Source: an uncultured virus (IMG/VR IMGVR_UViG_3300013110_000406) (lineage: Duplodnaviria; Heunggongvirae; Uroviricota; Caudoviricetes). Taken from it: a stretch of 64,000 nucleotides of DNA. The translations under genes and the position numbers were made by a program. Below, piece by piece: positions 3,343 to 64,000 of this stretch (position 1 is its first letter; each line of letters begins with the position of its first letter). The notes under the pieces are model-generated. The model had not been told where the DNA came from, made no database searches, and saw only the letters and a program-made list of their open reading frames with translations. The stretch lies in IMG/VR virus record IMGVR_UViG_3300013110_000406. One strand, written 5' to 3'.

Positions 3343-4222
3343 TAATTTTGATTTTGCAATGCTGCCTACAGGAAGCGTGGGCAATACCACCTTTACCTTA
3401 GAAGAGATAGGGATGCTGGCCTCCACTATTGAGAATATAGATTATTCTCTGGTATCGTGGGTAAAAGAAGACTTGAAACTCAGCACTGTTACCAATGAAG
3501 GCTTTAAAGAAGTCCCTGTATTGTGGCAAGTTCCTGAAAGGGCGTATCAGGTTAAAAATGAAAAATCCTTGCGCGATGACAACGATGCGCTGAAATTACC
3601 TCTTATTAGCGTAGAAAGAACAGGGATTGTGAAAAACCCTCAAAATCGGGGATCGTTTCAAGCTCATTTGTATTCTAATAAGCACAACCAGCGCTCCGGC
3701 CGATTTGTTATTGCAAAGCGCATTGTTGAAGACAAGACCCGTAATTATGCCACCGCGGTCGGCACACGAACCAATGCCGGCGGCACCCTCCAGCGTAATT
3801 ATCCCCGCATTAATAAGCAAGTAGTAGTACAGTTTTTATCAGTGCCTATCCCGGTATATGTGGATCTGGAATATAAGATTATAATTAAAACAGAATATCA
3901 GCAACAGATGAACCAATTGGTATCCCCCTTCATTGGGCGAACAGGTCAAACCAATGTTTTTGTCATGAGGCGTAATGGACATCTTTACGAAGGCTTTATA
4001 GACCAAAACTTTACTCACAATAACACAGTAGCTGATTTAGCTGAAGATGCTCGCCTCTTTGAAACCGAAATCACTATTAAAGTCTTAGGGTATCTCATTG
4101 GGGAAGGCGAAAGCGATGATCGCCCCATTGTGACGATGGAAGAAAACATTGTAGAAGTTACATTTCCTAGCGAAGGACCGGTCCCAACCGGCAATCTTAA
4201 TATCTTTGGTAAGACTTCCTGA
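3332..4222 (+). CDS. Tail terminator/completion protein (gp15-like)
   Basis: LKLPLISVER, PVYVDLEY, QMNQLV, ITIKVLGYL motifs; between neck and sheath genes. Confidence 0.6.
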   Translation: MLPDNFDFAMLPTGSVGNTTFTLEEIGMLASTIENIDYSLVSWVKEDLKLSTVTNEGFKEVPVLWQVPERAYQVKNEKSLRDDNDALKLPLISVERTGIVKNPQNRGSFQAHLYSNKHNQRSGRFVIAKRIVEDKTRNYATAVGTRTNAGGTLQRNYPRINKQVVVQFLSVPIPVYVDLEYKIIIKTEYQQQMNQLVSPFIGRTGQTNVFVMRRNGHLYEGFIDQNFTHNNTVADLAEDARLFETEITIKVLGYLIGEGESDDRPIVTMEENIVEVTFPSEGPVPTGNLNIFGKTS

Positions 4223-22741: not shown

Positions 22742-23853
22742 TGAAGACGCCATTACGATACCCCGGCGGCAAATCCCGCGCCGTAAATGTAATCTTACCT
22801 CTCATCCCAGAAGACTGTGGGGAGCTTTGCTCCCCCTTTCTTGGGGGAGGATCGATTGAGATTGCAGCGGCCGAACGCGGGATGACTGTTCACGGGTATG
22901 ATTTGTTTGCTCCCTTGGTATGGTTTTGGGAAGAGATATTAACTCGACCGGACAAGGTATCGAAACGCGCCCGCACTTATAGTGAAAATGTTGCGAATTA
23001 CACGCCGCTTGAATACTGGGTAGACCGATGGAATCATTTCGCTGTTACTGCACCACTGTGTAAGAAAAACTGTCGCGTGCACAATAAAGAGAGCACGGTG
23101 TGGTGTAACGATCATGATAAATTGGAGAAATTGATTCGAGGCAATTTAATCGGCATTTCGGAAGACACCTTCAGAAAGTGTCAAGCGCATTTAAAATCTA
23201 TAATGAATACGAAGGGAAAGTCCACTATCGATAAGGCAGCACAACTTTTCGTAGTCAACAAGGCCGGCCGGTCGGGAGCCACTTTAAGTGGCGGCTATTC
23301 CTGGCGCGCCTCTTGGGATCGCTATAACGAATTACAACTACAAAGACTCTCAGAGTTTAAATTAGCAAACTTTAATGTGGGGCGCGCGGATTTTGACATT
23401 TCGATACGCAATCACCCTGCGGCCTTTTTATATCTCGATCCCCCTTATTATCTGGAGGAAAAAAAGAATAAACTTTACGGGACAAACGGAAGTCTTCATG
23501 AGGGGTTTGATCATATACGACTGTATCAGGCTTTAAAATCAGTTGACAACCCCTTCATTATGTCGTATAATCAAAGTAGCTTCATTAGAGCACTTTATGA
23601 AGAAATTGGTGCGACGTGCATCAACTTAGAAGATGCTTGGGCATATGGAATGAACACTTCCAAAAAGTCTGATGAAATGATTGTAACAAACTTACCGGAT
23701 GCGCAAATCAGAGCGCAGATAGAAGAAACACTTAACAAAGAAAAAGGAGAGCAAAATGCCGAGAAAGGCAAAACAAACGAAAGCAGGTCGTGTATCCATG
23801 CAGGAACTCATGACCCTAGTAAACAAGAAAGCGGGCCGCAATGTCGCCCATGA
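22741..23853 (+). CDS. DNA adenine methyltransferase (D12/Dam class)
   Basis: TPLRYPGGKS, SPFLGGGS, YLDPPY, MSYN. Confidence 0.9.
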   Translation: MKTPLRYPGGKSRAVNVILPLIPEDCGELCSPFLGGGSIEIAAAERGMTVHGYDLFAPLVWFWEEILTRPDKVSKRARTYSENVANYTPLEYWVDRWNHFAVTAPLCKKNCRVHNKESTVWCNDHDKLEKLIRGNLIGISEDTFRKCQAHLKSIMNTKGKSTIDKAAQLFVVNKAGRSGATLSGGYSWRASWDRYNELQLQRLSEFKLANFNVGRADFDISIRNHPAAFLYLDPPYYLEEKKNKLYGTNGSLHEGFDHIRLYQALKSVDNPFIMSYNQSSFIRALYEEIGATCINLEDAWAYGMNTSKKSDEMIVTNLPDAQIRAQIEETLNKEKGEQNAEKGKTNESRSCIHAGTHDPSKQESGPQCRP

Positions 23854-24904
23854 TCTAACGGGGGAGAACCCTACCGAAGTCAAGGAATGGATTCCCACAG
23901 GATCGCGCTGGCTTGACAGTATTATATGCAAAGGACACATTGGCGGCATCCCTGTAGGGAAGGTCACAGAAATTGCAGGACTTACCTCCACAGGTAAATC
24001 TTATATGGCTGCGCAGATTGCAGCCAACGCCCAGAAAATGGACAAGCTCGTCGTATATTTTGATTCCGAGTCAGCCATTGACCCTGCTTTTTTGGAGGCA
24101 GCAGGTTGCGACCTAGAGCGCTTAATGTACGTTCAGGCATCGTCTGTCGAGTTTGTTCTTGAGACAATTGAAGAACTTCTAGGAGCAACCGACGAGAAGC
24201 TGCTATTGATTTGGGATTCTCTCGCATTCACTCCCGCAGTGTCGGATGTCGAAGGCGACTTTAATCCTCAATCCTCCATGGCAATGAAGGCACGCATCCT
24301 GGCGAAGGGAATGTCAAAGCTGACACTTCCTATTGCCGACAAGCAAGCAACCTTCTTGGTTCTTAATCAGCTTAAGACCAACATTACTAGTGGGCCGATG
24401 GCACATATCACAGCCATGACTACTCCCTACATGACACCCGGCGGAAAGGCAATGCATTATTCTTATTCGCTGCGCATCTGGCTCACCGGACGCAAAGCTA
24501 AGAGCGCTTTCGTGATGGACGATAAAGGTTTCCGCATCGGCTCCGAAGTTAAAGTTCGACTAGAGAAGTCACGCTTTGGAACTCAAGGAAGAAACTGCGC
24601 TTTCCGCATTATGTGGGGCACCGATGAGGTTGGTATCCGTGATGAAGAAAGCTGGTTCGATGCTATTAAGACATCCGAATGTCTAACGTCTAAGGGGGCA
24701 TGGTACACGCTAACCACACCAGACGGCTATAGCAAAAAGTTCCAGCCTTCAAAGTGGGCCGAGATCATTAAAACAGATAATGAATTTAGAGAGCAGGTCA
24801 TCCGTCTAATGGATGAAGAAGTCATTCAACGATTTGATCGCCGCGAAGGAACCGCCGACGATTTTTACGAACCTTATGAAGAACAGGAGATTTCAAATGA
24901 ATAA
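23756..24904 (+). CDS. recA: RecA/UvsX recombinase
   Basis: IPTGS..LD, GGIPVGKVTEIAGLTSTGKS (Walker A), DSE, IWDSL, LNQL, TPGGKA. Confidence 0.93.
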   Translation: MPRKAKQTKAGRVSMQELMTLVNKKAGRNVAHDLTGENPTEVKEWIPTGSRWLDSIICKGHIGGIPVGKVTEIAGLTSTGKSYMAAQIAANAQKMDKLVVYFDSESAIDPAFLEAAGCDLERLMYVQASSVEFVLETIEELLGATDEKLLLIWDSLAFTPAVSDVEGDFNPQSSMAMKARILAKGMSKLTLPIADKQATFLVLNQLKTNITSGPMAHITAMTTPYMTPGGKAMHYSYSLRIWLTGRKAKSAFVMDDKGFRIGSEVKVRLEKSRFGTQGRNCAFRIMWGTDEVGIRDEESWFDAIKTSECLTSKGAWYTLTTPDGYSKKFQPSKWAEIIKTDNEFREQVIRLMDEEVIQRFDRREGTADDFYEPYEEQEISNE

Positions 24905-35700: not shown

Positions 35701-36135
35701 CCCAAGAACCTGAAGAAGCTGCTAGAGAACATCGAAACCTATCGACCCGAAGGCGATTTCAGCGAAGAGGAGATCATTCAGTTTAAAACAGAGCTTACGG
35801 GAGTGTTCCCCATTAACCTTGTGATTAAAGCGGAGACAGTCGAGAAGCTCCAAGAAAAGTTTATCCCACCAATCTCCGAGTTTGATACAGCTTTAGAAGT
35901 GTGTTGGTTTATTCCACGCAAAATCATTCCTAAGAAAACAAAAAATGGAAAACTTTATTGGATTGTGGAAACAATTGATTCGAATAATGAACTCACAAAG
36001 ATCCGGTGTTGGGGCGTAAAACCCGAGAAAGATACTATCTTTTTGAACAGACCGTATATGGCCAAATTGCGCTATGATGAACAATGGGGATTTTCTACTT
36101 ACGCAATTGGGAAGACTTTCAGATTGTTGGGCTAG
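32695..36135 (+). CDS. dnaE: DNA polymerase III alpha subunit (family C)
   Basis: PHP domain LHAHS, ALTDHG, GVEAY; GRGSAAGSLVAY.LGIT, PDIDYD, HAGGVVI, KFDLLGL, YGFNKSHA. Confidence 0.97.
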   Translation: MTIKFVGLHAHSVAGSIFDAIGYPDAHMDFAFENGSDALALTDHGNMNGLAGQVLHAKKMQAEGKDFKPIFGVEAYFIPSIEEWREEYEAAMADKKRARSAKKDAASGATVEDETDSKKVQGLLRRRRHLILLAQNQTGLNNLFKLVSESYKSENFYRYPRMDYALLEKYGEGVIAASACLGGVYAGNYWENGIYDEEGNRTGVNREGALDDMRETTRRMQAVFGDRWYGELQWNNIKEQHELNQLIIQISEEFDMKLISTADSHYPNQTAWKDRELYKRLGWLGKGTPSWGEGAEFPEGVEEIGYELYPKNGDQMWESYQNYCKSSGFEYDDALVMNSITETYHIAHDRIESFFPDTTVRLPDFVVPAGTTATQALVNYALEGLRLKGLQNNKEYLARLRRELDVIDDRGFSKYFLTMKAIADEATKQMLAGPGRGSAAGSLVAYALGITQVDPIKYNLLFSRFLRSDATDYPDIDYDVSDSMELKEKLVEMWGEDCVAPISNWNTLQLRSLIKDISKLYGIPFTEVNNVTSVMMREATPEAKKKHGIKAGIYAPTWEEVMEFSVTLQAFLQKYPEVKARVEGLVGQVRSCSRHAGGVVIAEDLDRHMPLINSGGVRQSPWSEGQNVRHLEPMGFIKFDLLGLSTLKMMEGCIEHILRRHHGVEEPTFDDILDYYNKTIHPDVIDFDDLEVYKNIFHQGKWAGVFQFTEQGAQSFCTRVKPTNIIDVSAITSIFRPGPLSAGVDVDYVEAKNHPQYVSYLSDEAQEITEETFGFLIFQEQIALLAHKLGGLTLDEGNMLRKVLTKKGTGKNSVKAKLHTKFIKGCAAKKIHRDKAEDLWNKFEYFSGYGFNKSHAVSYSIISYQCAWLWNYYPSEWMAAFLDKEPETRKEKAINIAKKYGFKIAPLDINKSGTVWEISDDGKTLIQPLTSIKGLGMAAIEQILDHRPFKNAEDLLFREGISYSKFNKKALDALARGGALDDIIDDRFTGRKHFWSACVVERPKNLKKLLENIETYRPEGDFSEEEIIQFKTELTGVFPINLVIKAETVEKLQEKFIPPISEFDTALEVCWFIPRKIIPKKTKNGKLYWIVETIDSNNELTKIRCWGVKPEKDTIFLNRPYMAKLRYDEQWGFSTYAIGKTFRLLG

Positions 36136-36143
36136 TTAGTAAT

Positions 36144-36749
36144 ATGAACGTCATCAAAAACTTCAGTCCTCTTCTTAAAGACAAAGAGTTTATTGAGGAT
36201 TTGCCTGTTGTCATTCGCGTGAGAAAGTTTGACGAAGCCGCCGCCAAAGAATTTTCAGCGGCAGTATCTAAAGCTCAAAATACCGGACAACCCATATTGC
36301 CGGTCGTAATTGATAGTTATGGTGGACAAGTATACAGTTTGATGTCGATGATTTCAGATATTAGTGCCTCTCGGATCCCGGTGGCTACGATTGTGCAGGG
36401 GAAAGCCATGTCGTGCGGAGCTATTCTCTTTAGCTTTGGTGCCCAAGGTCACCGCTATATGGACCCGGACGCAACAATAATGATTCATGATGTAAGCTCG
36501 ATGAGTTGGGGCAAAGTAGAAGAGATTAAAGCTTCTGCTGAAGAAACCGAGAGATTAAATCAAAAGGTTTATAAGATGATGGCCATGAATTGTGGACATC
36601 ACCAGGATTACTTTCTCGACATTATTCATGAAAAAGGCCATGCCGACTGGTTTCTAGAAGCAGACGAATGCCTCAAACATAATTTAACTAATCACACTCA
36701 TGTGCCCGAATTAAGAATCGAAGCACGCGTCAAATTTAAATTTGAGTAG
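36144..36749 (+). CDS. clpP: ClpP-like protease (copy 1)
   Basis: IDSYGG.V, GKAMSCG (Ser), MIHD (His), DWFL.A.E (Asp). Confidence 0.88.
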   Translation: MNVIKNFSPLLKDKEFIEDLPVVIRVRKFDEAAAKEFSAAVSKAQNTGQPILPVVIDSYGGQVYSLMSMISDISASRIPVATIVQGKAMSCGAILFSFGAQGHRYMDPDATIMIHDVSSMSWGKVEEIKASAEETERLNQKVYKMMAMNCGHHQDYFLDIIHEKGHADWFLEADECLKHNLTNHTHVPELRIEARVKFKFE

Positions 36750-41861: not shown

Positions 41862-42269
41862 GTGGAATGGGCGCTGTTTACATTAATGTTTATCTTCGGG
41901 TATATTACTTGTAAGATATTCTATTTTATCAAAGCTACGCGCGCATCCGTGTTATTGTTGAAAGCGGCGCAGTTAGTATCGTTAGGTCTTCTTGCACGTG
42001 CAATGGAAGATTTTTATTACGCTAAAATCTATCGAATGGAAAAGATGATCGAGTCCCAAGAGTCTGATCACAATATTAGCGCCTTCTCTTATCGGATGGA
42101 AGAAGAGCTAGCTGCCTATAAAAAGAAATCGGTTCAAGGACTTGTTGAGCTTCATCCCTCTTTTTTTAAAGAAATTGTAGAGTTTGATGATTGGGCGTCT
42201 GGAATGGAGTATCTTAAAAAGAATGAAGAAGTAGTTCGCGCATTTTTTAGTAGGAGAGAAGATGATTAA
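41862..42269 (+). CDS. Hypothetical membrane-anchored protein
   Basis: N-terminal hydrophobic helix. Confidence 0.6.
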   Translation: MEWALFTLMFIFGYITCKIFYFIKATRASVLLLKAAQLVSLGLLARAMEDFYYAKIYRMEKMIESQESDHNISAFSYRMEEELAAYKKKSVQGLVELHPSFFKEIVEFDDWASGMEYLKKNEEVVRAFFSRREDD

Positions 42270-42918
42270 TCGTATTAAAGAAGCTATTGGAGCTTTTGTA
42301 ACCGAAGAAGAAAAACCGGAAGAAGACGCAGCACGCATCGTAATTGTAGATCCTGCCGCTTTGCAGGCTGCAGCCAAGGAAGATGAACCAGCGGCTCATT
42401 TGTTAGGGCTTTTCGCTGCCGTAGAAGAAGAAAAAATTGCAGAAGTAATCCATGCTCTCTTGGTAGTAGTGGAAAATGAACACAAGAAAGAAAAAGAAGC
42501 CCGCATCCCTGTAGATTTTTATCTTTCTACTTATGGCGGATCCGCTGACGATATGTTTGCCCTCTATGATATAATGCGGCTTGTACGTGATGACATCACT
42601 ATTCGGACGGTAGGAGTAGGGAAGGTTATGTCCGCGGGAGTACTCCTTCTGGCGGCCGGCACAAAAGGACAACGAAGTATCGCTAAGAACTGTCGTATTA
42701 TGATTCATTCCGTAATCGGAGGCAACCAAGGCGACCTTCATAATATGTTGAATGAGATGGAGGCTATTGAACAACTACAACAAATGTTCATAGATTGTTT
42801 AGTAACGGAAACAAAAATGACAAAAACTAGGTTGAAAAAAATGCTAGATCGTAAAGTTAATGTCTATTTATCAGCAGAAGAAGCAGTCGAATTGGGTATT
42901 GCTGACGTCATTATTTAA
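42262..42918 (+). CDS. clpP: ClpP-like protease (copy 2)
   Basis: YLSTYGGS, GKVMSAG, RIMIHS, YLSAEEAVELGIADVI. Confidence 0.88.
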   Translation: MINRIKEAIGAFVTEEEKPEEDAARIVIVDPAALQAAAKEDEPAAHLLGLFAAVEEEKIAEVIHALLVVVENEHKKEKEARIPVDFYLSTYGGSADDMFALYDIMRLVRDDITIRTVGVGKVMSAGVLLLAAGTKGQRSIAKNCRIMIHSVIGGNQGDLHNMLNEMEAIEQLQQMFIDCLVTETKMTKTRLKKMLDRKVNVYLSAEEAVELGIADVII

Positions 42919-44649: not shown

Positions 44650-46224
44650 TTGAGCAGAGCTTATGATAGCCAGCGAGAATTACAACAGAAGATTATGAAT
44701 GGCGTTAATACGCTAGCAGATAACGTGGCGTCGACGCTGGGGCCGCGCGGAAGAAATGTCCTTTTACAAGAAAAAGGTCAGATGCCTTTTATTACGAAAG
44801 ACGGAGTAACAGTGGCTCATTTTGTAGCACTGGACGATCCATTCGAAAATGCCGCAGCCCAAGTTATCAAACAGGCTGCAATTCAAACTAACACAGATGC
44901 GGGGGATGGTACCACCACAGCTACCGTTCTGGCTCGCGCAATTTTACGAGAAGCCCAGCGCTATATTGCTACCGGCGTTTCTCCTATCGAACTACAAAGG
45001 GGGATTGAAATTGGTGTACGAGAAATTACAGAAAATCTTAGAGAGATGTCACGGCCAGTGGCCAGCACAGAAGATATTGCACACATTGCTACGATATCAG
45101 CCAACAATGATACTACAATTGGAGAGCTTATTGCTCTTGCTGTGGATCGGGTGGGGCAAGATGGGTCTATTACGATAGAAGAATCTCGCTCTTTGGAAAC
45201 GTCACTAGATATCACCGAGGGGTTTCGCTTCACGTCGGGTTATTGTGCTAGCGCATTTGTGACCGACGAACGGCGCGCGATGCTGCAATATGAAGAGCCC
45301 TTGATCTTAGTGACTGATCATAAAATATCAGCAGTTGAATCAGTCCTTCCGTTGCTGGAACTAGTGGCACGGGAGGGTCGACCCCTCGTTATTATAGCTG
45401 AAGAAATAGAAGGACAGGCTCTCGCCGCGATGATTATGAACGCCATGCGCGGCACGCTTAAAATTGCTGCCGTCAAGGCGCCTGATTATGGGGAACAACG
45501 ACGCAACACTTTGAGCGACTTGGCTCTTTCCATAGGAGCTACCTTTATCACCCGAGAAAGCGGCGTAAAACTTCCTGATGTTAAACTCCAACATTTAGGA
45601 TCGGCTAGTTCCATTGAATGTACTAAATACAATACAACGGTTATTGGAGGGAATGCTAATTTTGAAGAGGTGGAGGCTCGAATCGAAAGCCTTAAAGAAC
45701 TAGTTAAGACGACCGAATCACTACAAGAAGCTGAAAGTATTCAGAGTAGAATAGTAAGACTAGCTTCAGGGGTAGGGGTTATTCGTGTCGGAGGAGCCAC
45801 AGAGGTTGATATGACTGAAAAGAAACATCGCATTGAAGATGCCTTAGAGGCGGTGAGATCTGCACAAGAGGAAGGGATTGTGACAGGCGGGGGTACCGCG
45901 CTCCTCCGAGCTACCAAAACATTAAACTTTTCAGAACTGGACAATAGCGATCAAGCACTTGGCATCGCCATTGTCAAGGAGGCATGCAAAGAGCCGATTC
46001 GACAAATGGCTTTAAATGCCGGCGCCTCTGCCGATCTAGTATTAGAACAGGTAAGCGCCACGGAAGGGAATCAAGGATGGGACTTTCGCCGCGGCGAATT
46101 AATAGACTTATATGAAAATGGAGTAATCGATCCCGTGAAGGTCACGCGCACTGCGTTGCAAAACGCCGCTAGCTGCGCGGGCACCTTAATCACTACTAAT
46201 TTCGGGATCATACAAACGGAGTAA
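44650..46224 (+). CDS. groEL: Chaperonin GroEL
   Basis: TLGPRGRNV, ITKDGVTVA, AGDGTTTATVLA, GGGTALL, IDPVKVTR.AL.NA.S. Confidence 0.97.
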   Translation: MSRAYDSQRELQQKIMNGVNTLADNVASTLGPRGRNVLLQEKGQMPFITKDGVTVAHFVALDDPFENAAAQVIKQAAIQTNTDAGDGTTTATVLARAILREAQRYIATGVSPIELQRGIEIGVREITENLREMSRPVASTEDIAHIATISANNDTTIGELIALAVDRVGQDGSITIEESRSLETSLDITEGFRFTSGYCASAFVTDERRAMLQYEEPLILVTDHKISAVESVLPLLELVAREGRPLVIIAEEIEGQALAAMIMNAMRGTLKIAAVKAPDYGEQRRNTLSDLALSIGATFITRESGVKLPDVKLQHLGSASSIECTKYNTTVIGGNANFEEVEARIESLKELVKTTESLQEAESIQSRIVRLASGVGVIRVGGATEVDMTEKKHRIEDALEAVRSAQEEGIVTGGGTALLRATKTLNFSELDNSDQALGIAIVKEACKEPIRQMALNAGASADLVLEQVSATEGNQGWDFRRGELIDLYENGVIDPVKVTRTALQNAASCAGTLITTNFGIIQTE

Positions 46225-46228
46225 AAAA

Positions 46229-46429
46229 ATGAAAGAAGGCGATTTATGTTACATACCACAGGCGGTTCAGTTATTTGATCAACAAGACCCGTATGTTATA
46301 ACAACACAAAAACCAATAGCAGCTATCTACCTGGGGGATAAGCATCCCCGCCATGCTTTGCTGTGGGTAAAGGGTCGAGAAATGTTAGCGCAGAGTCGAC
46401 ATGTTTATCCCATGGAGGAACGATGTTAA
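46229..46429 (+). CDS. Small hypothetical protein (GDL-type N-terminus)
   Basis: MKEGDLCYI; 66 aa. Confidence 0.55.
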   Translation: MKEGDLCYIPQAVQLFDQQDPYVITTQKPIAAIYLGDKHPRHALLWVKGREMLAQSRHVYPMEERC

Positions 46430-56902: not shown

Positions 56903-57151
56903 GTGGAACTTAAACGAGGAGACTTAGTAAGATGGGTAACAGACTGGGGGATTTATGCAGCGAGCGCGGATGGGTACGTCCAACGAGAATACCCACAATA
57001 TGCTTACGGCGTCATAATGGAAGTATCCCATCGAGACCCCGATGCTGTAGTGGTTTATTGCTACGATTCCAAACACGAATTCGCGGAACAAGACACGTGG
57101 GTTATCCTGCATCTGGTTCACGACGAATTCGAGTTAGTAAGCGAGGGTTAA
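56903..57151 (+). CDS. Small GDLV-family protein (start approximate)
   Basis: ELKRGDLVRW...YGVIMEV...FELVS. Confidence 0.55.
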   Translation: MELKRGDLVRWVTDWGIYAASADGYVQREYPQYAYGVIMEVSHRDPDAVVVYCYDSKHEFAEQDTWVILHLVHDEFELVSEG

Positions 57152-57154
57152 AAT

Positions 57155-57430
57155 GTGTCTAAGGCGACCGAAGAAGAGGCGCTGGAAGCGCTTAAAAAAG
57201 AAATCCGGGTATGGTGTCACACACCATTTTTGGTTAATACAGGAACAGATGACGGGGGGCGTTATCTGCAAATCTGGATCGAACGCCAGGAACCATCAGC
57301 ACGTTTGGACGCCTGGATGGTAGAAATGCTCCCCGGTAGTAAATATATGGGTTGGCGCTTAATTGTAAGCAAGTGCCCACCCGACTATATAAGATTATTT
57401 ATTTTAAATAAAAAACAAAAGGATTGGTAA
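57155..57430 (+). CDS. Hypothetical protein
   Basis: SD GAGG, 91 aa. Confidence 0.55.
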   Translation: MSKATEEEALEALKKEIRVWCHTPFLVNTGTDDGGRYLQIWIERQEPSARLDAWMVEMLPGSKYMGWRLIVSKCPPDYIRLFILNKKQKDW

Positions 57431-57774
57431 TGGAGGTTGGGGAACTGGTTTGTTTATACCGACGAAAGCATAAAGGGATTGGAATCGTCTTAGAAAAAGA
57501 AACGATTAGCGATGAAAAAATAAGAATAATAGAGATTGCTCAAAAAGCCGACTGGAAACAAAAAGAAGAACTAAAACGCAAAGCTCTTAGTGGGGCGTCT
57601 CAAAAAGGATTAATCGAAGCGGCCTTTCTCTATAACTTGTGGCAAGCGAACGCGAAGCTCAAAAAGGATTTTGTTTATATTAAATGGTTTCAGTGTCCCT
57701 CGGAGTATGAACAGACAAAAACTACCACGGATGCTGATTGGTTTCCGGTTGATTGGGTGGGAAGAATAAACTAA
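57430..57774 (+). CDS. Small GDLV-family protein
   Basis: MEVGELV...GIGIVL...YIKW. Confidence 0.6.
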   Translation: MEVGELVCLYRRKHKGIGIVLEKETISDEKIRIIEIAQKADWKQKEELKRKALSGASQKGLIEAAFLYNLWQANAKLKKDFVYIKWFQCPSEYEQTKTTTDADWFPVDWVGRIN

Positions 57775-57790
57775 CTCTATACTTAGTTAT

Positions 57791-58060
57791 GTGGCAACTA
57801 CTCACATTCCAGTCTACAAAATCGGGGATCTTGTAAAGTGTATTTATGATCTATTCGATCACTACCAGTATTTCTGGGATCAAGAGCCCGCAAGTGGCTA
57901 TCCTTTCCACGGGATTATCATAGATATCCAAGACAATATGCTGATGGACGAAGAGGTTCACGAATACGGTTATGAGAAACTTTATATTGTTCGCTGTTTC
58001 GATGGACACGTCAGATTTTTTGCTCACTGGGAAATGCGGCTCGTGTCAACATCTTCTTGA
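57791..58060 (+). CDS. Small GDLV-family protein
   Basis: YKIGDLVK...GIIIDI...YIVR...EMRLVS. Confidence 0.6.
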   Translation: MATTHIPVYKIGDLVKCIYDLFDHYQYFWDQEPASGYPFHGIIIDIQDNMLMDEEVHEYGYEKLYIVRCFDGHVRFFAHWEMRLVSTSS

Positions 58061-58100
58061 CAACTTTGTGGTTGACACCGGTATTAGAAGATGCTATATT
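58046..58100 (+). promoter_or_regulatory. Sigma70 promoter with upstream TTGACA-like repeats, drives tRNA-Leu
   Basis: TTGACA(58072)-N17-TATATT; extra hexamers at 58046 and 58057. Confidence 0.8.
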
Positions 58101-58108
58101 AAGAACAT

Positions 58109-58196
58109 GGCCGAGTGGTGGAATAGGTAGACACACCGGACTTAAAATCCGTTGATCATTATGATCGTGAGGGTTCAAGTCCCTCCTCGGCTACCA
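58109..58196 (+). tRNA. tRNA-Leu (TAA)
   Basis: GGCCGAG/CTCGGCT acceptor stem, CT-TAA-AA loop, long variable arm, GGTTCAAGT T-loop, encoded CCA. Confidence 0.96.
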
Positions 58197-58197
58197 C

Positions 58198-58252
58198 CTT
58201 ACATCTTCTTGACAACTTTTGGCTTGACCACACAAACTGGGCATGCTATATT
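58198..58252 (+). promoter_or_regulatory. Sigma70 promoter with upstream repeats
   Basis: TTGACC(58224)-N17-TATATT; 19-bp ACATCTTCTTGACAACTTT identical to 58049-58067. Confidence 0.75.
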
Positions 58253-58309
58253 ATGAACACTGACCACATTAACATCTTCACCGACGAAGAAATCAACAAG
58301 GAGCTACGG

Positions 58310-58693
58310 ATGGGCACCCGCTCACACATTTATATTGAAACCGAACCAGGAAGATTTCTGGGAACTTACTGTCAGTTTGACGGCTATCCTTCCCATATGT
58401 TTCCACAACTTGAAAAGCGCAGCCATGACGAAGTATATAGTATTATCGTCAGAGGACAAACACGCGGTGGCTTGGTAGGCATTGCTGCTACGCCGTCTTC
58501 TCCTATTGAATATCAAGATGGAATGGGGGAAGCATCTTTTCTTTTTAATCCGACAGACTATCTCGAAAGCACCTGCGTTAACTACGTTTATGTAAAGCGA
58601 CTGGATGGAACGGTACTATGGCGGGAAACCCGCAACGCTGAACCTGGAATCCCGATGCCCTGGTATAACACAGCACCCGAGGAGGAAGAATAA
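58310..58693 (+). CDS. Conserved-type phage hypothetical protein
   Basis: SD AAGGAG; MGTRSHI...YCQFDGYP motif. Confidence 0.65.
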   Translation: MGTRSHIYIETEPGRFLGTYCQFDGYPSHMFPQLEKRSHDEVYSIIVRGQTRGGLVGIAATPSSPIEYQDGMGEASFLFNPTDYLESTCVNYVYVKRLDGTVLWRETRNAEPGIPMPWYNTAPEEEE

Positions 58694-58694
58694 A

Positions 58695-58916
58695 ATGATG
58701 TTTGAAGCAGGCGAAAAAGTTATTGTAATGGCAGGCAGTGTTCATTCTCCGTCCTATCTACAGGGCGAGAGCGGAATGATCCTTGAAGTATCGGGATCAT
58801 CTGATTATGTACCTGAACATTATACTATTAAGTTTGAGAAAGAGACTCATATTCTTTATGGGTCCGAACTACGGAGAGAAGAAAGTGAACAAGACGTGAC
58901 GTATGAACTAAAATAA
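58695..58916 (+). CDS. Small GDLV-family protein
   Basis: MFEAGEKV...GMILEV...YTIKF...SELR. Confidence 0.6.
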   Translation: MMFEAGEKVIVMAGSVHSPSYLQGESGMILEVSGSSDYVPEHYTIKFEKETHILYGSELRREESEQDVTYELK

Positions 58917-58922
58917 GTGGTT

Positions 58923-59077
58923 GGCCCCTGGAGTAATACTTAAGGACATTCGGGTTCAATGTCTACAATGAACCTTGTACCCATCTGGTGAGGTGAAACC
59001 TGCGAGGGTAATGCAGGAGTGGAAAGTAGGCTAACGAGTGGAAGACGCGGTGAAGACAGCGTTCCTCTCCAGGGGCC
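58923..59077 (+). ncRNA. Candidate structured non-coding RNA (strand inferred)
   Basis: Perfect 11-bp closing stem GGCCCCTGGAG/CTCCAGGGGCC enclosing several hairpins; fills an intergenic gap. Confidence 0.6.
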
Positions 59078-59093
59078 TTTACATTGATTTGAC

Positions 59094-59122
59094 TTGACAA
59101 AGAGAAGAAAATGAGATATATT
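59094..59122 (+). promoter_or_regulatory. Sigma70 promoter
   Basis: TTGACA-N17-TATATT. Confidence 0.75.
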
Positions 59123-59128
59123 ATACAT

Positions 59129-59335
59129 ATGAAAAAGGGTGACGTAGTTAAGTTTGTTTCTCCCCCAGGACTTCACCACTTGGATTCGGTGATGAACTGG
59201 AAACAGCAGAGTCCTGGTTTGGTCGTGGGGAGCAAAGACACTTCTCTCAAGAAGCGGTCTTATGAAGTGCTGTGGAAGAACGGCGAAAGAACTTTTGAAT
59301 GGGAATCATATTTGGAGATTATTAGTAAAGCATGA
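59129..59335 (+). CDS. Small GDLV-family protein
   Basis: MKKGDVVKF...GLVV...YEVLW...LEIIS. Confidence 0.65.
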   Translation: MKKGDVVKFVSPPGLHHLDSVMNWKQQSPGLVVGSKDTSLKKRSYEVLWKNGERTFEWESYLEIISKA

Positions 59336-59571: not shown

Positions 59572-59647
59572 GCGCCGGTAGCTCAGGGGTTAGAGCGTTG
59601 TTCTTATAAAGCAAATGTCGGTGGTTCAAGTCCACCCCGGCGTACCA
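59572..59647 (+). tRNA. tRNA-Ile (TAT)
   Basis: GCGCCGG/CCGGCGT acceptor, TTGTT-CT-TAT-AA-AGCAA anticodon arm, GGTTCAAGT, A73, CCA. Confidence 0.93.
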
Positions 59648-60099: not shown

Positions 60100-60175
60100 G
60101 GGTCCATAGCTCAATAGGTAGAGCATCGGACTTTTAATCCGCAGGTCGTGGGTTCGATTCCCACTGGACCCACCA
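60100..60175 (+). tRNA. tRNA-Lys (TTT)
   Basis: GGGTCCA/TGGACCC acceptor, CT-TTT-AA loop, GGTTCGATT, CCA. Confidence 0.96.
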
Positions 60176-60193
60176 TTTTTTTAAGAGAGAACA

Positions 60194-60370
60194 ATGAAAC
60201 AAGAACACTATATTATTCAAGAATATAATCGCAAGACTCAAAAATATACGACGATAGGTGAAGCTCAAGGGCTCACTGCCGACGCTGCCAAACTCAAGTT
60301 TATTGAGCAGACCAACTGGAAGCCGCGCCGCAACATTATCCTTTTCGTCCAGCACCCCCTCTGTCGTTGA
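60194..60370 (+). CDS. 58-aa hypothetical protein (not in ORF track)
   Basis: MKQEHYIIQEYNRK...VQHPLCR; fills gap between tRNA and next promoter. Confidence 0.55.
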   Translation: MKQEHYIIQEYNRKTQKYTTIGEAQGLTADAAKLKFIEQTNWKPRRNIILFVQHPLCR

Positions 60371-60421
60371 CATTTACTTGACAACTTTGGGGTGGACAAG
60401 TGGCTTGCCCTATGCTATATT
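60367..60421 (+). promoter_or_regulatory. Sigma70 promoter with upstream TTGACA repeats
   Basis: TTGACA 60367, TTGACA 60378, TGGACA(60393)-N17-TATATT. Confidence 0.7.
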
Positions 60422-60427
60422 GTATGT

Positions 60428-60517
60428 ATGATCAGCAAATGGCTATGGATTCCGATTCTTCTGGTATACGGTTTCATCTTTGGAGCCAGCTACCTTCTAA
60501 CCTCGTGGATGGTCTAA
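60428..60517 (+). CDS. 29-aa membrane peptide, apparently leaderless
   Basis: MISKWLWIPILLVYGFIFGASYLLTSWMV; 6-nt spacer between -10 box and ATG. Confidence 0.55.
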   Translation: MISKWLWIPILLVYGFIFGASYLLTSWMV

Positions 60518-60714
60518 TGAGCCCAGGCAACCTTGTAATGATTAAGCGTGCTGCTATCGGCGTGCCTGCTGGCACCCTCGCACTATGCTTGAAGCGCGAC
60601 GAGAAGCGCGGAGATTATGACGAAGGCCATGAGATTTGGACAGTCCAGCTTATGCATGGGCAGCTACGGGGCATTGAGCGCCGGTATCTTGATATTGATT
60701 TGGAGATATTGTGA
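60517..60714 (+). CDS. Small GDLV-family protein
   Basis: MSPGNLV...WTVQL...DLEIL. Confidence 0.6.
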   Translation: MSPGNLVMIKRAAIGVPAGTLALCLKRDEKRGDYDEGHEIWTVQLMHGQLRGIERRYLDIDLEIL

Positions 60715-60914
60715 AAGTCGGTGACTTGGTAAAGAGCGCAGATCGTTTAGTTGGCAATCGGAATCGCATGCGCCTGGGAGTGATCGTAGAGGTAGACCCC
60801 GATAAAGCCGATCAACCGGGTTGTTTCGGGAGTTGTTTTATCCAGTGGATAGGCGATGCAGATTGGACATTCGTGTACGAAGAAGATATTGAGGTAATCA
60901 ATGAAGGTCGGTGA
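60711..60914 (+). CDS. Small GDLV-family (SH3/KOW-like) protein
   Basis: MKVGDLVK...LGVIVEV...IQW...DIEVINEGR. Confidence 0.75.
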   Translation: MKVGDLVKSADRLVGNRNRMRLGVIVEVDPDKADQPGCFGSCFIQWIGDADWTFVYEEDIEVINEGR

Positions 60915-61089
60915 TTTAGTAAGAAACCTTAACTCGGAAAGCGGTCTGCTTGGCGTTATTGTTTACTGGACAGATACCAAATGGCCCGACAACAATCAAT
61001 GTACGAACCATCCAGTCGTACACTGGAACGACGGGCGCACAAGTTGGATTATGGCGCATCGTGTGGAGATTATAAATGCAAATCGGTGA
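60901..61089 (+). CDS. Small GDLV-family protein
   Basis: MKVGDLVR...LGVIV...VHW...VEIINANR. Confidence 0.75.
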   Translation: MKVGDLVRNLNSESGLLGVIVYWTDTKWPDNNQCTNHPVVHWNDGRTSWIMAHRVEIINANR

Positions 61090-61300
61090 CATTGTAAGGG
61101 TACATTGGGGCGCATGCGACTGGTCCGGCACGGAAGGTGTTGACTGGGGATATGGCGTTGGCGTTGTGACGGGCGATATTGTGTGGTGGGAGAACACACG
61201 GCGTCTTGTGTCTCCGTGCGGCGACGTAGAGATTCTATTTCGCGGCGAGCGCGTAAACTATAACCTTGGTCGGCTGGAGATTGTAAATGAAAGTCGGTGA
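61076..61300 (+). CDS. Small GDLV-family protein
   Basis: MQIGDIVR...VGVV...LEIVNESR. Confidence 0.75.
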   Translation: MQIGDIVRVHWGACDWSGTEGVDWGYGVGVVTGDIVWWENTRRLVSPCGDVEILFRGERVNYNLGRLEIVNESR

Positions 61301-61469
61301 CTTGGTGAGATATAAAGATTCACTCCGCGATGACGTGGGAGTTGTAATGAAAATACAAACCGAGGGATCGTGTTCAATCTTTGGTCACACAGTGATCGTA
61401 CAGACAACCGATGGGATTTGCCGTCAATATACCGAAAAGAATCTGGAGATTTTAAATGCAAGTCGGTGA
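61287..61469 (+). CDS. Small GDLV-family protein
   Basis: MKVGDLVR...VGVVM...LEILNASR. Confidence 0.75.
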   Translation: MKVGDLVRYKDSLRDDVGVVMKIQTEGSCSIFGHTVIVQTTDGICRQYTEKNLEILNASR

Positions 61470-61644
61470 CTTGGTAAAGATTGTGCAGTCAGCAATAGAT
61501 CCGCTCAAGACTCCATTTTTGGAACAGGTCGGTGTGATTGTTAGAAAGACTACACTTGAATCAGAACAAAACGATTGGTATGATGTATTAACGCGGGATA
61601 GGATTCACTCATTCCGCGCAGACTATTTGGAGAAGATAAAATGA
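61456..61644 (+). CDS. Small GDLV-family protein
   Basis: MQVGDLVK...VGVIV...WYDVL...LEKI. Confidence 0.75.
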   Translation: MQVGDLVKIVQSAIDPLKTPFLEQVGVIVRKTTLESEQNDWYDVLTRDRIHSFRADYLEKIK

Positions 61645-61904
61645 AAGCAGGAGATTTAGTAACACTTTCGGCGTATGCGAATGGGCTTCAAGCCCTCCAG
61701 CGGTGGTCAGACCGCTTCCGCCAATACCATAAAAAGCAGCCCCTGGTGGGATTGGTGATTAAAATCTCCCCGTCTCGGTGGGCGTGGGAAGGGATGCAGT
61801 ATGAAGTACGATGGATGGAGCCGCATGGGCCGAAAGGTCGGGAGGGTAACTACGGCGTACACACATTCAACCGCAAAGATTTGAAGTTTGTGAGTCGAGG
61901 ATAG
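61641..61904 (+). CDS. Small GDLV-family protein
   Basis: MKAGDLV...VGLVI...YEVRW...DLKFVS. Confidence 0.75.
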   Translation: MKAGDLVTLSAYANGLQALQRWSDRFRQYHKKQPLVGLVIKISPSRWAWEGMQYEVRWMEPHGPKGREGNYGVHTFNRKDLKFVSRG

Positions 61905-62281
61905 TGGAAAATCTCACTCCAGAAAATTTTTTCCTGGTATTCCAGGTATTTATCAAAGTTTTAGTTATATGGAGTCCCGTATTGTTTGGGACGTGGCTTT
62001 ATATGTATTACACGCGCCCTAAAAAGCGCACAACCCAACGCAACAAAGGAAAGAAGATAATGAGAGCAGGCGAAGTATTTGAATGGCTGGATCAGGGACC
62101 AGCGGTATTGTTGGCACCATGTAAGATTGCCGATCCTATTCCCGTAGAAAAGAAGACCGAGTTTCTAAAAGATCCCGAAGGATTCTTGAAGGCATGGCCC
62201 AGCGAACAAGGCTGGACTATTAAACTTCTGGAAAGCGGCGACATCATCGACGTGCATGAAGACACGTTGACATACTCTTGA
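61904..62281 (+). CDS. Membrane helix fused in frame to a MRAGEV module (possible internal start at 62060)
   Basis: Hydrophobic N-terminus, basic linker, then AAAGGA..ATG MRAGEVF. Confidence 0.55.
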   Translation: MENLTPENFFLVFQVFIKVLVIWSPVLFGTWLYMYYTRPKKRTTQRNKGKKIMRAGEVFEWLDQGPAVLLAPCKIADPIPVEKKTEFLKDPEGFLKAWPSEQGWTIKLLESGDIIDVHEDTLTYS

Positions 62282-62321
62282 CAAGATTAACCTTGACTTA
62301 CCGTCGCTGGCATGGTATATT
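62267..62321 (+). promoter_or_regulatory. Sigma70 promoter with upstream TTGACA repeats
   Basis: TTGACA 62267, TTGACA 62278, TTGACT(62293)-N17-TATATT. Confidence 0.8.
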
Positions 62322-62327
62322 ATTAGC

Positions 62328-62459
62328 ATGAAAACGAAGAAAGTACCCAAGGCTCGTAACTGGCTCGCTGTCCATGCGTGGAATCGCAAGGGTGGAGCTA
62401 TCCCTAACAAGAAGAAAGTTATGAATAAGAAGGCATGCAGGAAGAAGGTGCGAGCATGA
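62328..62459 (+). CDS. 43-aa very basic peptide, apparently leaderless (not in ORF track)
   Basis: MKTKKVPKARNWLAVHAWNRKGGAIPNKKKVMNKKACRKKVRA. Confidence 0.65.
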   Translation: MKTKKVPKARNWLAVHAWNRKGGAIPNKKKVMNKKACRKKVRA

Positions 62460-62656
62460 GCAAATATGATTATGTTCCGTTTTTTGAGCGCGGCGATCTG
62501 GTAGAGATCAGCTTTGGCTATGGAGCTAAGAGCCTGGGCCTTTTTATGCATTATGAAGGATGGGCTGACGATCTTCGCGCTAAGGTTTTTTGGGATGGTC
62601 AAGACCTTTCCACTCCGGTCGTGCAACTTACACTAATCAAGAGAGCAGCAGAATGA
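62456..62656 (+). CDS. Small GDLV-family protein
   Basis: FERGDLVEI...LGLF...KVFW...LTLI. Confidence 0.65.
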   Translation: MSKYDYVPFFERGDLVEISFGYGAKSLGLFMHYEGWADDLRAKVFWDGQDLSTPVVQLTLIKRAAE

Positions 62657-62952
62657 ATATCTGGGTATTTATGGGACGCTGCGAAGGGGATCTATTCGCC
62701 ACCACACACCTAACGGAGAAAGGCGCAGTCCTGGCGGCACTGGCGGATATTCTGGAATATCTGGGAATCGACAGCGACGAAGATGCGCGATCTAACCCCG
62801 AAGATGCCGATGCCCTCTTGCCCTGGGATTACGACGAGCTTAAAACATTTCCCACCACGCAGCTATGGGAAGTCTACGCAGGATATCGTGAACATTTGTG
62901 GGATGATTTTTCGTATGAGATTGACATTCATCAGACACAGGTGACAGGATGA
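62653..62952 (+). CDS. Hypothetical acidic protein
   Basis: ATGA overlaps on both sides. Confidence 0.6.
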   Translation: MNIWVFMGRCEGDLFATTHLTEKGAVLAALADILEYLGIDSDEDARSNPEDADALLPWDYDELKTFPTTQLWEVYAGYREHLWDDFSYEIDIHQTQVTG

Positions 62953-63236
62953 AACTGGTTAGAGATAACATTCCCAAGATCATTAATGACTCGGGACGCG
63001 AATGTAAATATCATAAAGCTGACGAAGCTGAACATATAGCACGCCTCAAGGATAAAATGGAGGAGGAGCTAACAGAGTTTATGCTTGAGCCATCTTGTGA
63101 AGAAGCAGCCGACATGCTGGAAGTGGTGCGCGGTTTGTGTCACATTCACGGCATTGATTTTATGGATGCGCTGGATGCAGCCAACAATAAACATGCTCGA
63201 CGTGGTGGCTTCGATGGAGGGATCGTATTGTGGTAA
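62949..63236 (+). CDS. MazG-like/all-alpha NTP pyrophosphohydrolase
   Basis: KLVRDNIPKII..SG, KMEEELTEF, EEAADMLEV, K..RRGGF. Confidence 0.85.
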   Translation: MKLVRDNIPKIINDSGRECKYHKADEAEHIARLKDKMEEELTEFMLEPSCEEAADMLEVVRGLCHIHGIDFMDALDAANNKHARRGGFDGGIVLW

Positions 63237-63451
63237 AAGATACACTGCTGCAAGTCGGTGACTTGATAAGACATAAAACTTTGGGACACACCGGGTTGAT
63301 TCTTCAAAGCGATCCGCGTTCCCTATGCAGTGAAATGATCCCAAGCTATTTTTTGATTGTGTGGAGCGATTGGCCTCGACTGCCCCAAGCAGATAACCAG
63401 ACGTGGGCACTTGCAGATGATATAGAGGTGATTAATGCTGCAAGTAGGTGA
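63230..63451 (+). CDS. Small GDLV-family protein
   Basis: LQVGDLIR...GLIL...IVW...DIEVINAASR. Confidence 0.7.
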   Translation: MVKDTLLQVGDLIRHKTLGHTGLILQSDPRSLCSEMIPSYFLIVWSDWPRLPQADNQTWALADDIEVINAASR

Positions 63452-63683
63452 TATCGTTAAGTTTTTTGACTATGACTATGCCGCATTTCACCGCGATACG
63501 TCTGGTGAATGTTGGCGCATCGGTGTTGTGTCGGAGATCCGTCACGAGGTGTGGGATGAAGATTGGGATCCCGCATGTCTTCCGCTTGTCGTTGTCGTTC
63601 ACGACGGACACAGCCAACCCCTCGTGATGCCAAACGAAAAAAATATCGGAACCTGGGTGGAGCTTATAAGTGCCCGTAAGTGA
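63435..63683 (+). CDS. Small GDLV-family protein
   Basis: MLQVGDIVK...IGVV...VELIS. Confidence 0.7.
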   Translation: MLQVGDIVKFFDYDYAAFHRDTSGECWRIGVVSEIRHEVWDEDWDPACLPLVVVVHDGHSQPLVMPNEKNIGTWVELISARK

Positions 63684-63687
63684 TCGA

Positions 63688-63762
63688 ATGTGGGTTATTG
63701 TTTCATTGGCGTTGGCCGTGACGGTGTGGTATTATGTGCGCTTCGGGGGAGGGGCATTATGA
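63688..63762 (+). CDS. 24-aa hydrophobic peptide
   Basis: MWVIVSLALAVTVWYYVRFGGGAL; ATGA overlap with next gene. Confidence 0.4.
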   Translation: MWVIVSLALAVTVWYYVRFGGGAL

Positions 63763-63968
63763 AGGTCGGTGATTTGGTGCGACAGCGCGACGTTGGCATG
63801 CCTCGGCAGAATCGGAGAGTGGGCGTGGTGCGCGAGATCCGAAAGAAGGATCACGCACGCTGGAAGGGTGATGGCTGGGATTCAGTCAGAGTATATTGGG
63901 GCGACAACCAGCGCATGAACGAGCGGTGGACTGTGCGCGGGTCATTAGAAGTTATTGATGGCGCTTGA
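63759..63968 (+). CDS. Small GDLV-family protein
   Basis: MKVGDLVR...VGVVREI...VRVYW...LEVI. Confidence 0.75.
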   Translation: MKVGDLVRQRDVGMPRQNRRVGVVREIRKKDHARWKGDGWDSVRVYWGDNQRMNERWTVRGSLEVIDGA

Positions 63969-64000
63969 CATTCTCTTTACAACATTAACCTTGACTACAC

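Follow-up and report, generated by a model that had tools for sequence, protein, structure and literature searches.

Near one end of a 64,000-nucleotide (nt) stretch of DNA from an uncultured tailed virus (Caudoviricetes; IMG/VR record IMGVR_UViG_3300013110_000406), hereafter the window, lies a tandem array of small genes that begin alike while their middles are unrelated. The window is the part from 62001 to 126000 of a 128,413-bp viral contig. We read this region as a cassette array of predicted SH3-like small genes, from which related phages exchange whole genes at a start-of-gene head of ~20 bp, likely by general short-homology recombination and likely refreshing early binders for host takeover or counter-defence. 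We give this reading as a whole a probability of roughly two in three.

A recurring head in an array of small genes with unrelated middles

Between positions 60702 and 63968, ten genes of 60-87 amino acids (aa) carry an MKVGDLV-like N terminus, and an eleventh, at 60517, opens the main run of seven coupled genes (Table 1). A motif scan of the 128-kb contig returned 17 family genes, 16 of them inside the window and all except the one at 46229 within 56.9-66.3 kb; we assigned the member at 58695 by eye, beyond the motif scan. The middles share little: the best body-to-body blastp match has E = 0.003, and in a profile-profile comparison of two array families the match is confined to the first 10 columns. 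An earlier reading made from the letters alone (the sequence-only reading) had described about ten genes of 60-90 aa with a common pattern, about 16 in total, and unrelated middles, all of which stands. Its statement that consecutive genes overlap by 14 nt holds for four of the nine successive pairs among the ten genes (downstream starts 60901, 61076, 61287, and 61456), whereas the overlap is 4 nt at 61641 and 17 nt at 63435, and the other three pairs are uncoupled; the 60517/60711 pair also overlaps by 4 nt. Its near-constant junction of ~30 bp was too strong a description, as the four 14-nt joints have 23-31 of 36 nt in common and all eight heads compared have 17-31 of 36, with perfect identity runs of 3-19 nt. 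What is conserved is a start-of-gene head of ~20 bp, RTGAAAGTCGGTGAYTTRGT. Allowing up to three mismatches, this consensus has eight matches on the + strand, all within the 5.4 kb from 60.7 to 66.1 kb, versus none on the - strand and none in each of five triplet shuffles. Hence, the recurrence of the head is not due to chance.

The junction TTGGAGGTGATCA-RTGAAAGTCGGTGAYTTRGT combines, in two reading frames, a Shine-Dalgarno (SD) sequence, the start codon of the gene that follows together with its KVGDLV strand, and the stop codon of the gene before, just as the sequence-only reading had it; over the stored loci, the consensus is TTGGAGGTGATCA-RTGAAAGTCGGTGATTTGGT. The element GGAGGTGATC, which, judged by the 3' end of 16S rRNA, is an extended SD sequence, reads E-V-I in the upstream frame, where it forms the predicted last strand of the upstream protein. 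RTG serves as the downstream start codon, and the TGA within GGT-GAY as the upstream stop. At the four 14-nt joints the upstream proteins end in EVINEGR, EIINANR, EIVNESR, and EILNASR; the NESR tail, modeled with low confidence in both of our structure predictions, is set by the head codons of the downstream gene. A variant joint with a 10-nt overlap, in which the upstream stop is the TAG within CAAGTAG, occurs near position 4001 of a related locus (L218). Another (L045:1425-1476) holds a 51-bp remnant cassette made of its neighbor's head and tail without a body, which could reflect either an internal deletion or a slip in assembly.

One valine codon of the head is doubly silent, in that the two frames read Val and Arg with either of two codons. 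There, GTC outnumbers GTA by 186 to 33, counted after dropping the joints matched by the search pattern, against a background usage of 0.20 to 0.18, and GTC is preferred in 48 of 55 locus groups. In uncoupled heads, GTC is retained together with GGT in 49 of 75 cases but together with other glycine codons in only 11 of 51. This bias makes the junction DNA more alike than protein and SD sequence need, an excess that had been proposed as a check on the array.

The same junction is widespread. A single 30-nt junction pattern found 139 loci in 120 stored viral stretches, on contigs of up to 293 kb. The unique genes of these loci number 875, with a median of 63 aa, and adjacent motif-bearing open reading frames (ORFs) in the loci overlap by exactly 14 nt in 637 pairs versus 4 nt in 69, a count that includes redundant loci and comes from a sample selected by the junction pattern itself. 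Clustering at 40% identity sorts the 754 genes of 63 non-redundant locus groups into 492 families, and 368 of these are confined to a single group. Capsid proteins of four other array-bearing genomes are ~44-67% identical to that of this phage. Among 185,579 cellular species genomes, a junction pattern gave six loci, which lie in five of them. We considered these as evidence of a host and rejected them as co-binned phage contigs: a phage portal was matched in three of the five genomes, and one locus (L148) is a ~4-kb piece between runs of N.

Exchange of whole genes and the position of the switch

Close relatives differ by whole cassettes. First, L014 and L016, with 99.4-100% identity across 12 kb, are set apart by one 176-bp cassette, and 20 nt at the join are common to both parents. 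Second, L041 and L063 (99% identical) show replacements as well as two one-cassette indels, whose joins have 16 and 20 nt in common. Third, a 66-aa cassette at position 5065 of a complete circular record of this phage (G001; 203,204 bp) is replaced, between the same two neighbors, by an unrelated 52-aa cassette in an 87%-identical relative (L009). Fourth, L025 and L083, with a 93%-identical flank, share eight cassettes in a different order, with the next gene kept in none of seven comparisons. In one contig from another study, 184 other bases stand in place of window positions 62335-63433. Orthologous cassettes keep their downstream neighbor in 8 of 14 cases at ≥90% identity, 1 of 27 at 80-90%, and 1 of 7 at 70-80%; at the family level, the neighbor is kept in 16 of 206. 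The family of the window cassette at 60901 occurs in ten locus groups with nine distinct downstream families, and that of the first cassette (60517) in six groups with six different downstream genes.

The ends of alignments between loci gather at the junctions. They fall junction to junction in 142 cases, junction to outside in 15, mid-gene in 9, and outside in 62, with a junction footprint of 36%; in eight chosen pairs there are 4.8 ends per kb in family DNA versus 0.93 outside. Order and content are therefore not fixed among relatives. The sequence-only reading had named fixed order and content, with junction identity fully accounted for by amino-acid and SD constraint, as what would refute its idea that homologous junctions let whole genes be excised, inserted, or reordered, and neither holds. 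Indels, swaps, and reordering bear the idea out, while the site of exchange is the head and not the whole junction. Promoter-like elements, described below, take up 12 of the 62 outside ends against a footprint of 2.6% per locus, for example in L043/L069, which makes the element a second, weaker exchange site.

To locate the switch between partners, we compared 1,102 unique junction contexts three ways, which yielded 17 rows and 12 distinct joined junctions; three rows, all from one junction in L025 where neither parent matches across the joint, were set aside. In 11 of the 12 joined junctions (~9 independent events), the sequence matches the left parent as far as the start codon and turns to the right parent at some point from there to +28; the remaining one is uninformative. 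The working site is thus the head. The offsets differ between events and do not overlap (0 to +3, after +8, and +14/15), although later point mutations could mimic such differences. Joints with a 4-nt overlap or a plain leader also take part in exchange. In these alignments, exchange maps to the ~20-bp head at varying offsets rather than to the whole 30-bp junction. Short-sided joints in run contigs (one side of 20-34 nt) were also considered as recombinants and were rejected as matches to the junctions of other phages.

Since partners switch inside the head, the mobile unit spans one head to the next and carries the SD sequence for whatever follows, while its own stop codon is supplied by whichever head comes next. 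Each exchange in this way yields two intact, in-frame, overlapping genes. The array is thus shufflable without a recognized integrase or non-coding DNA, its translation punctuation serving as the exchange site, so that each recombinant stays in frame. The format is not restricted to the barrel family: in L053 (7147-7407), a GIY-YIG nuclease gene lies between two complete junctions, with a VKVGD head and an EEIINESR tail, and a relative (L079) has the same gene without the cassette head. In G001, a 103-aa gene (L151:4767-5078) with a CxC...CxH motif, presumably SWIM-like, has 14-nt overlaps on both sides; its product is without a PHROGs or NCBIfam match.

The cassette proteins and their genomic setting

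We modeled two unrelated cassettes out of the ten genes (60901 and 61076) with AlphaFold2 (AF2), and both are predicted as five-strand SH3-like barrels, with predicted local distance difference test (pLDDT) scores of 87 and 83; residues 6-9 form the first barrel strand at pLDDT >90 in both. The best matches among solved structures reach Z 7.9 (root-mean-square deviation [rmsd] 2.2, 54 aligned) and Z 7.6 (rmsd 2.8, 62 aligned), and they are tied and non-specific, including Tudor, SAWADEE, PWWP, KOW, and R67 domains. The SH3-like part of the earlier SH3/KOW-like label is therefore borne out by the models, while KOW appears only among these tied matches and none of the 17 family genes scanned matches the Pfam KOW profile at E ≤ 0.1. 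In that scan no curated Pfam cut-off was reached; NCBIfam gave nothing above cut-off (one weak HspQ match, 18 bits versus 38), PHROGs gave no array protein match at E ≤ 0.01, and the 30 nearest clusters in the ESM Atlas are all unnamed. Across 400 members, conservation is limited to core positions (GD-V, G, V-W, LEVI), and net charge ranges from -12 to +12.

Bodies of orthologous cassettes have a nonsynonymous-to-synonymous rate ratio (dN/dS) of 0.21 (0.18-0.24; 93 pairs, which are not independent), similar to the 0.18 of flanking genes (26 pairs). Each family is thus a conserved protein, and the diversity lies in which families a phage carries. The diversified small proteins of the sequence-only reading are accordingly a library of distinct families rather than a set in rapid diversification. 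We see in them a natural library of several hundred uncatalogued small proteins under purifying selection, on one predicted scaffold and in an early phage region, and hence a defined set to screen for new factors of counter-defence and host takeover.

Predicted sigma70-type promoter-like sites stand at the heads of units, and the cassettes behind them, in runs of up to 13 coupled genes, are promoterless; the gene-to-gene junction itself is without such a promoter, the sites being a separate element. Across 63 loci, 156 promoter-like sites lie on the array strand versus 4 on the opposite strand. In a triple-box class, the -35 box is preceded at 15 and 26 nt by two further TTGACA-like boxes. This class is limited to the variable region: of the 11 sites listed in a ~21-kb region of G001, 10 carry the extra boxes, which are absent from promoter-like sites of its core genome. 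Besides those in Table 1, such sites occur at window 58046-58100 and 58198-58252 and at G001 199542, 200948, 201569, 201871, 202968, and 4058. In related loci, the extra boxes are present at -15 and -26 in 54 and 57 of 155 sites, respectively. Directly after one triple element of the window lies a 43-aa, very basic ORF (62328-62459); in L043/L069 a similar ORF overlaps a cassette head by 14 nt.

The phage is an uncultured T4-like myovirus with a gp23-type capsid protein, gp20 portal, sheath, and tube, and it also encodes a DnaE-type polymerase, UvsX/RecA, gp32, SbcCD, GroEL, and a Holliday resolvase. None of its cultured relatives is close: the best named matches of the capsid protein are 43-47% identical, and 50,697 phage records gave no match to the array. 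The window contig is identical to G001 over the last 12 kb compared, and in G001 the family genes are confined to the same ~21-kb region, which consists of small genes and tRNAs. A separate assembly contig is identical to window positions 60117-64000 with 0 differences, and its run may be the source sample. Four runs, marine metagenomes of one study, hold nearly all of the phage; among the 20 runs listed, none is of RNA, and all are contigs rather than raw reads.

Other genes accompany the array. In the window, tRNA-Leu(taa) (58109-58196), tRNA-Ile(tat) (59572-59647), and tRNA-Lys(ttt) (60100-60175) are interspersed with scattered family members, and a MazG/PRA-PH-like pyrophosphatase gene with weak Pfam matches (62949-63236) lies amid the cassettes. 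An AAA_5 ATPase and a DUF2201 metallopeptidase/VWA-like gene form a pair in the variable region (L151 of G001:16-2580) that is common to many array loci. Elsewhere, the window holds groEL (44650-46224) and two ClpP-like protease genes (36084-36749 and 42262-42918), and the same phage genome encodes a tubulin/FtsZ-like protein (L003:672-1796) and a sialic-acid cluster with NeuB and a sialyltransferase (L153:12451-16191).

Table 1. Array genes, junctions, promoter-like elements, and the candidate recombinase gene in the window
Feature	Position	Strand	Basis or remark
UvsX/RecA-like recombinase gene, candidate catalyst (putative role)	23756..24904	+	
Lone distant family member behind groEL	46229..46429	+	
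Halo: five scattered uncoupled members (56903, 57430, 57791, 58695, 59129) amid tRNA and other small genes	56903..59335	+	
Triple-TTGACA sigma70-type promoter-like element, main unit	60367..60421	+	sequence, repeat family D4; extra boxes 60367 and 60378; -35 TGGACA at 60393; 17 nt; TG-TATATT
Cassette gene 1, 65 aa, MSPGNLV...	60517..60714	+	4-nt overlap with next gene
Cassette gene 2, 67 aa	60711..60914	+	motif scan
14-nt-overlap junction 1	60885..60920	+	SD, start 60901, stop 60912-60914
Cassette gene 3, 62 aa, predicted SH3-like barrel	60901..61089	+	structure model
14-nt-overlap junction 2	61060..61095	+	start 61076
Cassette gene 4, 74 aa, predicted SH3-like barrel, unrelated middle	61076..61300	+	structure model
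14-nt-overlap junction 3	61271..61306	+	start 61287; example of the sequence-only reading, which quoted 61276-61306
Cassette gene 5, 60 aa	61287..61469	+	motif scan
14-nt-overlap junction 4	61440..61475	+	start 61456
Cassette gene 6, 62 aa	61456..61644	+	4-nt overlap with next gene
Cassette gene 7, 87 aa, last of main run	61641..61904	+	
Triple-TTGACA promoter-like element ahead of second unit	62267..62321	+	
Degenerate family member, 66 aa, without standard head	62456..62656	+	
Cassette gene, 73 aa, head at 63248	63230..63451	+	17-nt overlap with next gene
Cassette gene, 82 aa	63435..63683	+	
Uncoupled cassette gene, 69 aa, full head kept	63759..63968	+	
Start of further triple-TTGACA promoter-like element, extends beyond window end	63965..64000	+	

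Catalyst, competing explanations, and known systems

Exchange is probably catalyzed by the recombination-replication machinery of T4 type (UvsX, gp32, SbcCD), or arises by template switching in co-infected cells, rather than through a dedicated recombinase. UvsX/RecA is present in all five array genomes searched (three of them complete), as the sequence-only reading had noted for this phage. Pfam families PF00589, PF00239, PF00078, PF03837, PF04404, and PF04098 each gave 0 of 5, that is, no match to a tyrosine or serine recombinase, reverse transcriptase, RecT, ERF, or Rad52 family; the control for the PF00589 search was positive in 14 of 14. The label integrase-free is consistent with this result.

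Several observations weigh against our reading. All the evidence of shuffling comes from assembled contigs. Gene order is kept among very close relatives (8 of 14 neighbors at ≥90% identity), in L006/L020, which are collinear, and for the window order 61287-61456 in L158 and one contig from another study; likewise, among 71 junction pairs whose upstream flanks match, 36 have retained the downstream gene. Exchange is thus occasional, not constant. The GTC excess may stem from shared recent descent rather than selection on DNA, and the junction sample was drawn with a pattern that itself contains GTC. Structural Z scores below 8 indicate a common barrel arrangement alone, not function, and dN/dS is without a sign of positive selection. 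Finally, junctions share only short stretches of perfect homology (within a locus, the median is 12 nt, with ≥16 nt in 26%), less than the roughly 25-50 bp of efficient RecA/UvsX recombination, which makes the catalyst uncertain.

These short homologies make a site-specific enzyme the main rival on the question of the catalyst. An unrecognized recombinase of phage or host would use the 20-bp head as an att-like core, and the array would be a true integron analog. Such an enzyme would account for switches inside the head in 11 of 12 joined junctions and for silent head positions that are conserved in uncoupled genes too, and many core genes without a family match leave room for it. We consider it unlikely, given the absence of tyrosine or serine recombinase family matches in the five genomes and the offsets that vary between events. 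In addition, the four junctions lack a stable hairpin (together with two promoter elements, + strand RNA folds were no better than shuffles; z -0.55 to +1.59), no junction inverted repeat is among the 25 longest listed, and the promoter element, unrelated to the head, also gathers breakpoints.

About as improbable, by a shade more so, is that the genes are passive birth-and-death paralogs, the junction being a by-product of tandem duplication and coding constraints, with unselected shuffling of minor accessory factors. Most junction positions are indeed explained by SD sequence, start, stop, and barrel strands; five recent duplicates lie within loci, a halo of degenerate uncoupled members surrounds the array, and positive selection is not apparent. 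However, the same junction persists across phages with capsid proteins just ~44-67% identical while the bodies have lost all similarity, most families occur in a single locus group, unrelated cargo takes the cassette format, and bodies are under purifying selection. That the shuffling reflects assembly misjoins at short repeats in mixed populations is highly improbable: metagenomic contigs are the source of all data, and those of one run break exactly at the junction 61283-61312, but identity at mapped joins spans just 16-20 nt, the usual assembly words are longer, reordered orthologous cassettes have diverged by 5-20% with mostly silent changes, and many cassettes are wholly absent from the partner locus.

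The proteins might be made early from strong host-type promoters, with each family binding its own host protein or nucleic-acid target via variable loops, a picture that could go either way. A role as early binders for host takeover or counter-defence, for which we see an equally balanced case, is suggested by those promoters, by the pattern of turnover, and by two precedents: IPI*, a counter-defence protein of the T-even ip locus (PMC3012670), and Nip, a phage counter-defence protein with predicted SH3-like domains (PMC11984713). We lean against, without dismissing, a bolder version, in which a large aquatic phage clade maintains an integrase-free combinatorial library: a 20-bp self-punctuating code under selection would let early operons take up hundreds of distinct SH3-scaffold binders and captured foreign genes in whatever order, as an antibody-like, population-wide repertoire against host defences.

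Integrons are cellular gene-cassette arrays with an IntI integrase and an attC hairpin. The present array resembles them in its promoterless single-gene units in tandem behind a promoter, in gain, loss, and reordering at a repeated site, and in foreign cargo. It differs in being viral, without IntI (PF00589 in 0 of 5 genomes), with a variable crossover offset, and without an attC hairpin at the four junctions (+ strand RNA folds only). A diversity-generating retroelement would bring a reverse transcriptase, and PF00078 was found in 0 of 5 genomes. With SH3-like small barrels (Tudor, KOW, PWWP, R67 DHFR, PetP, HspQ, and the SH3-like domains of Nip; PMC11984713), the array proteins share a predicted five-strand barrel and an N-terminal G-D-x-V strand, although they rise above no Pfam, PHROGs, or NCBIfam cut-off.

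Two phage systems come closer. The T-even ip locus also holds a palette of small diverse proteins that share one N-terminal peptide, a leader that serves as a capsid-targeting signal (PMC3012670; the locus is also discussed in PMC4122927), whereas the array head encodes a predicted first barrel strand, and array genes are conserved at both ends, overlap, and lie behind host-type promoters. The promoter-early stem-loop (PeSL) cassettes of the T4-type phages RB49/phi1, T4/PST, and KVP40/nt-1 are ~100-bp intergenic promoter-terminator elements flanking unrelated ORFans, for which mini-circles have been shown (PMC2839356, PMC4122927). Both settings are a T4-like myovirus with a repeated linker in a hyperplastic early region, here a T4-type genome (capsid, portal, sheath) with its arrays in one ~21-kb region of G001; whole small genes are deleted, inserted, and replaced at the linker in close relatives; and a dedicated recombinase has been identified in neither. 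In contrast to PeSLs, the linker here is ~20 bp inside coding sequence, serves two frames, and joins genes into coupled chains; promoters are separate, at unit heads; the folds give no stem-loop terminator; and most of the cargo shares one fold, spread over hundreds of families, instead of being unrelated ORFans. The literature searched, mostly open papers without supplements, gave no description of the array, and the supplements of PMC7824862, which list phage gene expansions, may bear on its novelty. We conclude that the array is a real, widespread, and apparently unpublished coding-sequence variant of linker-mediated gene shuffling. With it, modular evolution through linkers, an old proposal for the T-even IP palette and for PeSLs, becomes measurable at base-pair resolution in wild populations.

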